Shown piece after piece: positions 17,195-20,253 of a stretch of DNA of 49,195 nt. The notes beneath the pieces were generated by a model. That model made no database searches and was not told the DNA's origin. It saw nothing but the letters and a program-made list of their open reading frames with translations. The translations under genes were made by a program, and so were the position numbers. Source of the stretch: an uncultured Candidatus Saccharibacteria bacterium (lineage in GTDB: Bacteria; Patescibacteriota; Minisyncoccia; Phycocordibacterales; JAACPR01). Each line of letters starts with the position of its first letter. Positions within the stretch are counted from its first letter, which is position 1. The stretch lies in NCBI GenBank assembly GCA_964589635.1, contig CAZPRI010000002.1:1-49195 (forward strand). Direction: 5' to 3'.

Positions 17195-18088
17195 TTATGT
17201 AACATTGAAGCCCTCAAAACAGGCAAAAACGTCCTCCATTTTTTCTCTCACATCTATCTCATCATCATAAACAATCAACATCTCCAAACTCTTGTGTCGA
17301 CTAAACTTTCGCACGTCTCGAACCTCTAAACTCTGTAGTAGTTTTGTAACATAAAAATGTCTAAAGCCGTGAACAGTCTTCTGTACTCCAACGTCCTCAA
17401 ACATTTTCTGAAACTCACGTTTAATCGTCATTGTGCTTAGTCTGTTACTTTTTCTGTTACCAAGACTCTTGAAGATTGCACCGCTACCAACTTTGTTGAG
17501 TTTTAGATGTTTTCTCAAAGCTTCTACTGTAGCAGGAGCTAGATACACTGGCTCTTTATCATCAGCACCCTTGGCACGAACAAATATCGTCTTGTTAGGT
17601 AAATCAACATCATTCACATCAAGACGAACAATCTCAATCTGTCTCAGCCCTTGAAACGCCAATAAACAAAACAACGCACGTAATCGTGCGTGTTGTGGTG
17701 TGTCTGGGAGTTGATTTAATTGCTCCACGACCTTTTTCATATCTCTGTCTGTCAGTCCCTCTCGCTTATGCTTCTTATTTTGTTTGAACAGCCGTATGTT
17801 TTGAGTAATGTCTACTGGAATGAGTCCGAGACGATTGGTTTCTTTAAGAAAGATTTTTGCTGTTGCAAGATACTTGTTTTTAGTAGAGATGGTGTAGTCT
17901 GTTCTTTTCTCAAGATGTCGTTTGTATTCTAAATAACTATTTACACGGAAGCCCTCTTTATGAATGAAGTCTATAAACATTCCAATACGTGCTGAGTAGT
18001 CTTTACGAGTCGACTCACTTACATCAAGAGAGTCAAAGATTTTCCTCGCTTGAAAGTGCAGGTCTCTTATTTCGATTAAGTGGTTCAT
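17195..18088 (-). CDS. Tyrosine recombinase/integrase
   Basis: GLRQIE, AKG, HGFRH, RHKS, and Tyr in LIVYD: complete R-K-H-R-H-Y set. Confidence 0.92.
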   Translation of the reverse strand: MNHLIEIRDLHFQARKIFDSLDVSESTRKDYSARIGMFIDFIHKEGFRVNSYLEYKRHLEKRTDYTISTKNKYLATAKIFLKETNRLGLIPVDITQNIRLFKQNKKHKREGLTDRDMKKVVEQLNQLPDTPQHARLRALFCLLAFQGLRQIEIVRLDVNDVDLPNKTIFVRAKGADDKEPVYLAPATVEALRKHLKLNKVGSGAIFKSLGNRKSNRLSTMTIKREFQKMFEDVGVQKTVHGFRHFYVTKLLQSLEVRDVRKFSRHKSLEMLIVYDDEIDVREKMEDVFACFEGFNVT

Positions 18089-18468
18089 AAGCCGATATGT
18101 ATTATCTCAACACCACGCTTTTCAAAAGAGGGTGTGAGCATTTCGTATCGATGGCACTGCTTATAATCTTTTTCCGAACACATCACGCAGACATTTTTCC
18201 CAGTGCGAACAAGCTCAACAAGCTCGTCTATGGTTTCTTCATAGTTTTCATTTTCTCCGAGACCGCCGAGATTATCACCTCTGAATTGATATTCGATACC
18301 CTCAATCGAGAGCATCTCATCTAACTTCTTTCTATTGAATTGAGGACAAAATCGAGACCGAGGATAGGTACGAATGTCGACAATAATGTCTATTTCGTTA
18401 TTCTTTAAGATTTTTAAGTACTCTGAATACGCTCGGTTGCTATGACCGATGGAAAATACGGTTTTCAT
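18085..18468 (-). CDS. DUF488 family protein
   Basis: SIGHSNR, VDIRTYPRSR, LGG, MCSEKDYKQCHR. Confidence 0.88.
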   Translation of the reverse strand: MKTVFSIGHSNRAYSEYLKILKNNEIDIIVDIRTYPRSRFCPQFNRKKLDEMLSIEGIEYQFRGDNLGGLGENENYEETIDELVELVRTGKNVCVMCSEKDYKQCHRYEMLTPSFEKRGVEIIHIGL

Positions 18469-18570
18469 ATTATTTTTTAACTATTTAACCCAGTATGGGT
18501 GATTGGTAATATCTATATTATATCAAAAATACGGCTCTAAATATAGGTATTTTAGACACTACTCAATAAG

Positions 18571-19434
18571 TTAATTGCAAAATCCTGGCAAAGTTTCTTC
18601 ATAAGTGCCTTTTGAAGCCACACTTGCACCAACTTCAGCTTCTTCACTATAACCCCACGCCCAGATAGTTACATCGTCCCAATCAATCAGATAATCTCGT
18701 GCTAATAGGTAGAGAGTGTGGTCTACATCTCTCCGCTCTGCATTATCAGGTACAACAATTCGTACACCTATTCTTTTACAACCAGCATAAGAAATATCAT
18801 CTTCTTCAATTATTCTGTAATCGACTTCCACTGGCTCAGGTTCAGATATTTCAGGTAGTTCTAAAACCAAAGTTTCATTAGTATCAGCTTTTTCAATCTC
18901 AATAGCGTATGGAGTAAAGTTTTGGGGTACTTCATATACTAAATATCCTCTCTCTTCTATGTTATGACCCAAGTCTCTACCATCAATAGCTTCAGCTTCA
19001 ACGCCGATACTTCCTCCTCGAGTACTTTCATATACATCGTACGATACGCCCTCGGTATCTATTAAGTTCATACCACTAGAGTAAAGTGTGAGGGTCTTAC
19101 CTGACGTGTTTGTAAAAGTGGTGTCGATTAAAACAAATATGGTGTTGGCTTTTGCTTCGGTCTCACCGAATGAACCTGATAAAGTGTTGTGGTATTCAAA
19201 ATCATTTACTTTTACATCAAGTGTTGCTAGCTGACCAATTTGACCAAAAGGGACGATAACAAGGTCTCGACCATTTTGTTTAGTCAAATCTGCGTTTTCT
19301 TTAGTTGTAGCTTGAACTGGTTCGTTTGTGGTGTTGTTATTTTGAAAAAAGAATAGAAGTCCCATTACAGCAATTCCCACAGCAACTAAAATAATAACTA
19401 ACTTCCTCTTATTGTGTGTTGGTTCGGATTTCAT
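18571..19434 (-). CDS. Membrane-anchored DUF4352-like (Ig-fold) protein
   Basis: N-terminal TM helix; FVLIDTTFTN, LIDTEGVSY, GYLVYEVP pattern. Confidence 0.7.
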   Translation of the reverse strand: MKSEPTHNKRKLVIILVAVGIAVMGLLFFFQNNNTTNEPVQATTKENADLTKQNGRDLVIVPFGQIGQLATLDVKVNDFEYHNTLSGSFGETEAKANTIFVLIDTTFTNTSGKTLTLYSSGMNLIDTEGVSYDVYESTRGGSIGVEAEAIDGRDLGHNIEERGYLVYEVPQNFTPYAIEIEKADTNETLVLELPEISEPEPVEVDYRIIEEDDISYAGCKRIGVRIVVPDNAERRDVDHTLYLLARDYLIDWDDVTIWAWGYSEEAEVGASVASKGTYEETLPGFCN

Positions 19435-19477
19435 TTTTTAGCATTAAAACTTGTAATGCCTAGTGGCACACAAAAAG

Positions 19478-19556
19478 CCCACCACCAGGAGAGCACCTTA
19501 CGGTAACTCCGACCACCGTTTCCAGTGGACACCGAACCAACGACCCTGATGATGGG
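19478..19556 (-). ncRNA. C4/CI-like antisense RNA candidate
   Basis: 12-bp closing stem CCCAUCAUCAGG/CCUGGUGGUGGG, hairpins CCACUG-GAAA-CGGUGG and ACC-GUAA-GGU, unpaired GUUGGUUCGG complementary to two flanking sites. Confidence 0.65.
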
Positions 19557-19640
19557 TTCTTTATGTTGGTTCGGATTTTTGACCATATCCTTAGTAATCC
19601 AAGGGGTTAGGTCATTCAAACTTTATTCAGTTGTGTTTAT

Positions 19641-19664
19641 ATTATATCAAGAAACGGCTATAAT
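19641..19664. promoter_or_regulatory. Divergent -10 boxes
   Basis: TGaTATAAT on minus (19641-19649) and TATAAT on plus (19659-19664). Confidence 0.6.
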
Positions 19665-19671
19665 GCACTGT

Positions 19672-20253
19672 ATGTTAAGTATTAAACATAATCCAAAACT
19701 TTTTTACAGAATTGACCTAAAGTCTATATCCAACCTTGACCAAGAGACAAAAGAGGTTATCCAGCACATCAATTCATCGTGGTCAGATATTGAGTACTCA
19801 AACTATCTTTTTCATAAAAACTTCGGTCAGCTGTCAGACGCTAACGAGAAAGAGATTGGTATGTTTTTTACTTCCTTATTGATATTTAGCAACAGCTTCT
19901 ATACTCATCTCAGCACAGTGTACCTGTTGATGAAAAAACTCAATAGTAAATACCCAAAAAGTACAAAGAGATTACTCATAATGAACAAAAAGTTTTTTGA
20001 AAGAATACAGACAATCAGAAACTGCATTCTCATACACAAAGAAAAGGATAGCTTTTACAAAAATCCTAAAAACTCTATGAGTAGTACTGACCCCAAACAC
20101 TTGATTGAGCAGAAAATGTACGTAATTGAGAATGGGTCGAAAAAAATCTACACACTAAAGCCATTAAAAGACGTGGATATGATGTTCAGACTCGTTCAAA
20201 ACTTTGAACATCTGTTACAGTCTGAAAACTCAAAACTCGAAAAGTCTGCGTAA
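19672..20253 (+). CDS. Putative HEPN-domain protein
   Basis: Helical protein with R-N-x4-H motif (RNCILIH); start set at MLSIKH, 7 nt after TATAAT. Confidence 0.55.
   Translation: MLSIKHNPKLFYRIDLKSISNLDQETKEVIQHINSSWSDIEYSNYLFHKNFGQLSDANEKEIGMFFTSLLIFSNSFYTHLSTVYLLMKKLNSKYPKSTKRLLIMNKKFFERIQTIRNCILIHKEKDSFYKNPKNSMSSTDPKHLIEQKMYVIENGSKKIYTLKPLKDVDMMFRLVQNFEHLLQSENSKLEKSA

Follow-up and report, generated by a model that had tools for sequence, protein, structure and literature searches.

The antisense RNAs C4, of P1 and P7, and CI, of P4, are among the closest described systems to an RNA locus on contig CAZPRI010000002.1 (GCA_964589635.1), which is the subject of this text. In c4, which belongs to the immI operon of phages P1 and P7, two antisense elements called a' and b' are exposed in hairpin loops. 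The copies in P1 are named a1/b1 (upstream) and a2/b2 (downstream); for the satellite phage P4 the names are seqA and seqC. Mature c4 is about 77 nucleotides long and is released by RNase P. We take RF01695 to be the Rfam accession of C4. One target of c4 covers the ribosome-binding region of the next gene, according to the searchable text of PMC12197685. Hairpin-like RNAs, P4 CI and P1/P7 C4 among them, are substrates of RNase P, according to that of PMC5499578; the searchable text of PMC8546580 is the third source for this comparison. The DNA analysed is a stretch of 49,195 nucleotides (nt), called the window from here on, from a genome that totals 589,627 bases. A preliminary description of this DNA had proposed a C4/CI-like antisense RNA with two cognate targets on the minus strand. 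The locus turns out to be a member of a different catalogued family, LOOT, and it is most likely a cis-acting, bistable RNA in the 5' leader of a gene for a DUF4352 protein.

The description of the LOOT motif reportedly drew on marine metagenomes and considered it likely to be a small RNA. Rfam files it as a small RNA gene. In the searchable parts of three papers, LOOT (from the Weinberg/Breaker collection) turns up three times: the Rfam 14 paper (PMC7779021) has it in a figure legend, as a 'metagenomic-based RNA', the Rfam 15 paper (PMC11701678) lists it in a table, and the CaCoFold paper (PMC7657543) has one sentence on its cross-covariation. The name is absent from the main text of the discovery paper (PMC5737381), a statement that does not extend to its supplement, where the motif is described. 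A printed function for LOOT was not found in the searchable literature, although that same supplement may say more, and as far as the searches show, no functional model is in print. LOOT is a catalogued orphan RNA. This locus and its relatives supply a concrete, testable mechanism.

Positions 19490-19613 on the minus strand match LOOT (RF03000, Rfam 15) over model positions 1-121 with 75.6 bits, where the gathering cut-off is 46.4, and an E value of 1.5e-12. Scanned with Rfam 15, the window as a whole has LOOT and one tRNA as its RNA matches. The alignment to the LOOT consensus contains the four consecutive hairpins P1 to P4, of which P2 has an outer helix and an inner one. The latter, P2b, has 3-4 base pairs (bp) at this locus and is weak, with non-standard pairs marked in the alignment. 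The locus is a new copy of LOOT, and nothing sets it apart from the family. What does go beyond the Rfam model is a helix past its 3' end (P5), a promoter with a 5' motif, and a copy of a P2 arm on the downstream start site. C4-family identity did not survive a cmscan of 19300-19800 at E<=10, in which no C4-type family came up and LOOT was accompanied by just three hits at chance level. The individual elements that had been described are all present on the minus strand where they were placed: the -10, the 5' hairpin, the 15-mers, the antisense stretch, the stem and the tetraloops.

Three short segments are central. Segment a is CCGAACCAAC at 19574-19565, the 5' arm of P2. Segment a' is GUUGGUUCGG at 19541-19532. 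In the Rfam consensus fold these two pair over 10 bp with zero G-U pairs, and a' is the 3' arm of P2; in a second fold, discussed below, a' is unpaired in a junction. Segment a2 is another copy of CCGAACCAAC at 19427-19418, which is +8 to +17 of the DUF4352 open reading frame (ORF), or codons 3-6. Both copies are the core of a 15-mer, AAATCCGAACCAACA. It occurs at 19578-19564 and, immediately behind the DUF4352 ATG (19434-19432), at 19431-19417; a' is the exact complement of the 10-nt core in each. Counting both strands, the 10-mer occurs 4 times in the genome. Three of the occurrences belong to this 160-nt locus; a long ORF contains the remaining one.

The two 15-nt sites had been described as target 1 (19564-19578) and target 2 (19417-19431). 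For target 1 a correction is needed, as it is the P2 5' strand in the consensus fold of LOOT. Its complementarity to a' thus reflects a helix within the RNA of a known family, which the preliminary description had not recognised. The wider observation does hold: a single antisense stretch has matching copies on either side of it in the same transcript, and the downstream one is on the translation start.

Two sets of LOOT loci bear on this arrangement. Set A consists of 62 loci with LOOT matches from genomes of the same order; L063 is left out (32.4 bits, at a contig edge). Set B consists of 77 usable loci out of 80 taken from at least 119 matches to a pattern of conserved P1/P3 bases, the other 3 being too near the end of the locus. 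Minus 6 duplicates, sets A and B together make up 133 non-redundant loci, all from very small genomes of the CPR (candidate phyla radiation) type. Across the 62 loci P2 measures 9-14 bp, nearly all of it Watson-Crick, and there are 48 distinct arm sequences.

A locus was counted as having a copy if at least 9 nt of its own P2 5' arm recur within 150 nt downstream of LOOT. This is the case in 36 of the 62 loci of set A. As controls, the own arm is found upstream in 1/62, its reverse complement in 0/62, and the arms of other loci in 7/3616. Set B gives 29 of 77 loci, versus 0/5456 for non-cognate pairs. Combined, 61 of the 133 non-redundant loci have a copy of their own arm, and so do 18 of 51 arm families. 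Key and lock thus covary in the way the preliminary description had put forward as a check, with arms and copies changing together in 18 arm families.

Measured as duplex energy, the pairing of a' with a2 is beyond the 1% tail of non-cognate pairs in 30/62 loci, and 38/62 have a convincing site. At this locus the duplex comes to -17.8 kcal/mol, where the 1% tail of non-cognate pairs is at -16.6. The position is also narrowly defined. Of the 38 set A loci with a site, 31 have 0-6 nt between the end of the duplex and the start codon behind it. In 6, including this window, the duplex overlaps the start codon or comes right after it, and in 1 it is 12 nt upstream. Of the 25 non-duplicate loci of set B, 22 have an ATG 0-5 nt behind the copy. 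The sequence that would be blocked is no Shine-Dalgarno motif.

A second LOOT copy is found in the same genome (G000:C26:6055-6186, plus strand, 73 bits). The arms of this paralogue (L002, ~1501-1690) are CCCGGUUGA and UCAACCGGG, and a matching ACCCGGUU sits a few bases before its ATG. The gene encodes a 222-amino acid (aa) membrane protein with a tRNA_anti-like domain. Conversely, the same arm can be found in different genomes before unrelated genes; examples are CCGUCCAAAGUA, in 13 loci, and ACCCGCUAGAG, in 13 (shared-arm loci include L015, L019, L021, L035, L041, L076, L090 and L097). The leader and its start-site copy seem to move as a unit.

The repeats, direct ones of 10-15 nt that lie 147 nt apart, with an integrase nearby and a first operon gene that is exchanged in a same-genus genome, might also be read as a target-site duplication or as recombination sites on both sides of an inserted element. 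The upstream repeat is inside a conserved RNA, between P1 and the rest, where P1 carries the putative receptor for the P3 loop; a target-site duplication was rejected for this reason. A duplication also leaves the internal complement unexplained, which changes along with the repeats. Alternatively, the region could encode a leader peptide, given that an open frame (62 aa, 19431-19619) crosses LOOT in this window. Across LOOT, 40 of the 62 loci have stops in all three frames, so LOOT is not coding and the peptide was rejected as well. We give these readings, even taken together, hardly any chance.

The second fold depends on helix P5. Its 5' strand, b, is ACAUAAAGAACCCAUCAUCAGGG at 19566-19544, made up of AUAAAGAA and CCCAUCAUCAGGG; it comes directly after segment a and overlaps the last 2 nt of it. 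The 3' strand, b', is UCCUGGUGGUGGGCUUUUUGUGU at 19490-19468, made up of UCCUGGUGGUGGG and CUUUUUGU, mostly past the 3' end of the Rfam model. At this locus P5 has 23 bp (19544-19566 with 19468-19490). It includes the closing stem of the three-way junction that had been described earlier, CCCAUCAUCAGGG (19556-19544) with UCCUGGUGGUGGG (19490-19478), which is 13 bp including 3 G-U pairs. The hairpins of this junction are P3 (CCACUG-GAAA-CGGUGG, 19528-19513, with the GAAA loop at 19522-19519) and P4 (19510-19490, with the GUAA loop at 19501-19498), the latter found both in the Rfam alignment and by folding.

A contiguous P5 core of 8-18 bp is present in 61 of 62 loci. With outward extension, it is typically 17-23 bp. 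In a MAFFT alignment of set A, the two parts of P5 have 94% and 86.5% paired cells; helix P3 is 96% paired, with covariation. Pairs in P5 change in a compensatory way, with counts of CG 41/UA 21, CG 28/AU 17/GC 15, and AU 38/GC 21. None of 500 shuffles reach the observed values, slid controls pair 38-47% versus 87%, and RNAalifold predicts P5 unaided. The three-way junction and its closing stem are thus a real, covarying fold. P5 with its U run had also been considered as a plain intrinsic terminator. This was rejected, since the U run has a covarying, A-rich partner strand and is in that sense a strand of helix P5.

Directly beyond, CCACUAGG at 19466-19459 could pair with CCUGGUGG of b' once P5 is open, and would then form a hairpin, P6. 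It scores at least 7 in 26/62 loci, versus 9.2% of cross-locus pairs, which is moderate support. P6 is offered here as a suggestion that is moderately enriched across loci.

P5 and the inner hairpin P2b share one strand: in the Rfam fold, the CCC...GGG of the b strand doubles as P2b. In addition, P5 runs 1-6 nt into segment a in 35/62 loci, with matching changes, and the 5' strand of P5 follows a without any linker. For these reasons the fold with P2 and P2b (state A) and the three-way junction closed by P5 (state B) exclude each other, at least partly. In energy they differ little: subtracting state B from state A gives -0.8 +/- 4.0 kcal/mol, and the difference is within 5 kcal/mol in 49 of 61 loci (L046 was left out). 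For LOOT alone in this window, state A is at -52.3 kcal/mol and state B at -54.9. Adding the duplex of a' and a2 makes state B the more stable one in 37 of 37 loci with a site, in a sum that ignores pseudoknot costs. There are thus mutually exclusive, covarying folds, coupled to an expression platform, in an RNA that lies 5' of a same-strand gene and has a promoter-like element upstream. This is what one finds in a leader.

The mechanism that we consider the most likely would then work as follows. In state A, which is the Rfam fold, a' would be held by a in P2, together with P2b. This would leave the start region free and the gene translatable, or ON. In state B, P5 would claim the strand of P2b along with the end of a, and a' would be set free. 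The freed a' could then pair with a2 (19418-19427, codons 3-6) and block ribosome binding, which would be OFF. State A would form first during transcription, with state B plus the a'-a2 duplex as the more stable end state. Candidate inputs are the kinetics of cotranscriptional folding, Mg2+ or temperature acting through a contact between the GAAA loop and its receptor, or a protein or ligand. We infer which state is ON, that the pairing happens within one molecule, and that there is a response to a signal.

Several things weigh against a cis-acting switch of this kind. A cis copy of at least 9 nt is missing in 72 of the 133 loci, and a terminator takes its place in only part of them. Either the mechanism is not universal, or there are further platform types that went unrecognised; folding the spacers of the 24 set A loci that lack a cis copy did not bring out a common alternative platform. 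At this very locus, a2 lies after the AUG, unlike at most loci. The fold energies ignore pseudoknot and tertiary terms, and P2 and P5 might partly coexist as a pseudoknot, since their overlap here is only 2 nt. There is no conserved unpaired pocket that would suggest a small-molecule ligand. Finally, many of the loci are related, and both sets stem from one species-representative collection, so the counts overstate independence. The 18 arm families are the safer, conservative count of independent cases.

Some of these points can be turned into a different explanation altogether. LOOT could be a static structured leader or a free-standing small RNA, with P2 and P5 in a pseudoknot, serving stability, termination or protein binding, and with a downstream copy that has no regulatory role. 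The Rfam classification as a small RNA gene and the 72 loci without a cis copy speak for this. The overlap of P2 and P5 is only 0-2 nt in 48/62 loci, which makes a pseudoknot conceivable. Against this, the cognate start-site copy is far beyond its controls, P2b and P5 cannot coexist on their shared strand, and the two folds are near-equal in energy across loci. A full pseudoknot would probably also be sterically strained, given the missing linker. We regard a static RNA as clearly unlikely.

A subclass of LOOT bears on cis action. It has a P2b of the form CUGAAC...GUUCAG and numbers 21 loci. Between LOOT and the gene, 13 of these 21 have a hairpin followed by a U run, versus 9 of the 112 other loci (the 13 are L004, L011, L014, L079, L098, L107, L108, L111, L112, L127, L130, L147 and L154). 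In 12 of the 13, the 5' arm of this hairpin has an alternative partner in LOOT, AGCUGGCG at the P4-P5 junction, a sequence that is free only when P5 is open. This would give the same logic as the start-site copy, with state A ON and state B OFF. The evidence is limited, since many of the members are close relatives. As it stands, this terminator/antiterminator arrangement fits a cis-acting two-state leader better than it fits a free antisense RNA. One conserved RNA on either a translational or a terminator platform is the pattern of cis-regulatory leaders.

This leaves a c4/CI-like circuit, as originally proposed. Here the three-way-junction RNA (~19556-19468) would be released from the leader, by termination or processing, and act as a diffusible antisense on a2 in the transcripts of its own operon, and the variable arm would be an address that prevents cross-talk among modules or competing mobile elements. 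The layout is indeed the same, with an upstream copy, the antisense and a start-site copy, and so is the covariation of key and lock. As in C4-type systems, one transcript carries both target copies, one on each side of the antisense, and the downstream copy is on the ribosome-binding region. At this locus GCCA follows the long stem P5, and the upper stem of P5 plus CUUUUUGU could terminate transcription. Genomes hold up to 5 LOOT copies, and the same-genome pairs that were compared all differ in their arms. Downstream genes are often of the mobile-element or defence type (HNH, Imm_superinfect, methylase), and there is an integrase in this operon.

Against such a circuit, beyond the lack of any C4-type Rfam match at E<=10, is the antisense itself. 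Instead of the two hairpin loops of c4 there is one 10-nt stretch, which is a helix strand in the consensus fold (state A) or a junction strand (state B). The U run belongs to a covarying helix. The 3' tail after P5 varies; counted by eye, it is [AG]CC in 14/62 loci and GCCA in 3/62, and an RNase P-type RCCA tail was rejected since it is not conserved across loci. Within-genome arm diversity is about what chance would give: a rough estimate from family sizes has ~1 shared pair expected, where 0 were seen. The terminator/antiterminator subclass argues for cis action as well.

Then there are the missing targets. With both arms searched, no further start-site targets were found for either LOOT copy in their own genome, and the extra genomic matches of both arms are inside long ORFs (FtsW-like and ATPase-like frames, judged by residues). 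For the orphan copies in G010, G107 and G011 no trans start-site targets were found either. In G010 no further site turned up, and the extra 10-mer matches in G107, G011, G010 and G031 are not beside start codons. All in all, we find a circuit acting in trans rather doubtful, and keep to the bistable leader.

The start of this leader can be placed tentatively. An extended -10, TGATATAAT, is found at 19649-19641 on the minus strand, with the TG at 19649-19648 and TATAAT at 19646-19641. It has no -35 match, and because of this a simple scan of 19250-19800 missed it; that scan listed no minus-strand promoter or terminator. Next comes a conserved ACAACTGAATA at 19634-19624, which probably holds the first bases of the transcript, its 5' end. 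Within 60 nt upstream of LOOT the motif ACAAYYNAAW is found in 40/62 and 50/77 loci of sets A and B, mostly 15-18 nt before P1 and ~7 nt after the -10. A -10-like hexamer is at the same distance upstream of the ACAAC motif in 36/62 loci.

The -10 hexamer is also the 3' arm of an inverted repeat at 19641-19664 on the minus strand, ATTATA N12 TATAAT. At other loci this repeat is up to 9-10 bp, for example TGATAGCAA N3 TTGCTATCA. It reaches at least 7 bp in 16/61 loci (L045 left out) versus 5% of shuffles, and may be an operator.

Hairpin P1 follows at 19613-19581, as placed by the Rfam alignment, with an internal loop CCUAAC/UAUGG. The canonical 11-nt GAAA-tetraloop receptor is written CCUAAG_UAUGG in the searchable text of PMC11381326, so the loop found here is one position off. 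Across the family, CCTAAC with [AG]TATGG is found in 35/62 loci and CCTAAA with GCATGG in 18/62. Both P1 loop motifs are detected in 58/62 loci, and a GAAA in the P3 window in 62/62. From this receptor-like loop and the GAAA loop, a tertiary contact between P1 and P3 is a reasonable inference.

Downstream, the DUF4352 gene runs from 19434 to 18571 on the minus strand. It encodes 287 aa with an N-terminal membrane anchor, and DUF4352 is its sole Pfam match (E 3.3e-10). It is followed by genes for a DUF488 protein (18085-18468, E 1.6e-17) and a tyrosine recombinase (17195-18088, Pfam Phage_integrase, E 1e-20). LOOT and these three genes form one same-strand block (genes at 17195-19434).

On the plus strand, antisense to LOOT and overlapping it, there is a 242-aa ORF (19525-20253). 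It probably begins at the ATG at 19663, which makes it 196 aa without a Pfam match and leaves a 228-nt divergent intergenic region that contains LOOT along with its promoter.

Another genome of this genus (G001:C4:18427-20523) also has, downstream of a LOOT, stretches ~73-84% identical to the DUF488 and recombinase genes. That block has another LOOT arm and another first gene, for a zinc-ribbon membrane protein. It looks as if the unit of leader plus first gene has been exchanged.

In 61/62 loci, LOOT is followed by the start of an ORF of at least 40 aa on the same strand. The 61 downstream proteins scanned are diverse: HNH 5, Imm_superinfect 3, DNA methylase 2, tRNA_anti-like 2, SNase 2, T5orf172 2 and DUF4352 1, and many of the others are small membrane proteins without a family. 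They share no common function. Control of a surface protein, as suggested in the preliminary description, is thus fitting for this locus only and does not carry over to the family.

LOOT is found in 43 of 151 genomes of the same order, each of 0.4-1.1 Mb, with 63 matches in all, and in 0 of 14 control genomes. The pattern of conserved P1/P3 bases matched at least 119 species-representative records, almost all of them titled as Patescibacteria or candidate phyla radiation (CPR), with names such as Paceibacterota, Nomurabacteria, Parcubacteria and Saccharibacteria. Among ~2.9 million viral contigs it matched 1. A few pattern-matched records (L087, L089, L098, L119 and L154) are titled Gammaproteobacteria, Gastranaerophilales, Methanoregula or Flavobacteriaceae. 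These may be mis-binned contigs or real transfers.

It is tempting to go one step further, and we do so tentatively, as a possibility that we would not bet on. LOOT may be a portable cassette of promoter plus leader in CPR bacteria, resembling a natural 'toehold' lock that is individually addressed, with the helix as a barcode that is copied onto the start site. One shared sensor core, consisting of the clamp of GAAA loop and receptor and the exchange of P2 and P5, might then co-switch unrelated surface, defence and mobile-element genes. The barcodes could prevent interference, or give key-lock immunity in trans as in P1/P7. Gene regulation in Patescibacteria/CPR, where record titles place LOOT, is almost unexplored. 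If the leader mechanism is confirmed, it would be a widespread RNA device for controlling accessory, surface and defence genes in reduced CPR genomes, and also a natural model for programmable RNA locks.

Compared to c4 and CI, the likeness is that the antisense element comes from the same transcript as its targets, and that key and lock differ between related elements. The differences are that LOOT has one 10-nt antisense which is a helix strand, and not two loop sequences; that its host is a very small bacterial genome, with a single viral contig matched; and that its genes are diverse, and not antirepressor or replication genes.

Riboswitches and attenuators are the other natural comparison. 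LOOT shares with them three segments of which the 1:2 and 2:3 pairings are mutually exclusive, competing folds that are near in energy, and a conserved RNA joined to a translational or terminator platform. Unlike a riboswitch, LOOT has no evident conserved pocket, and the sequence it would block is not the Shine-Dalgarno. Its switching helix, moreover, has its own sequence at nearly all loci, and that sequence recurs on the start site.

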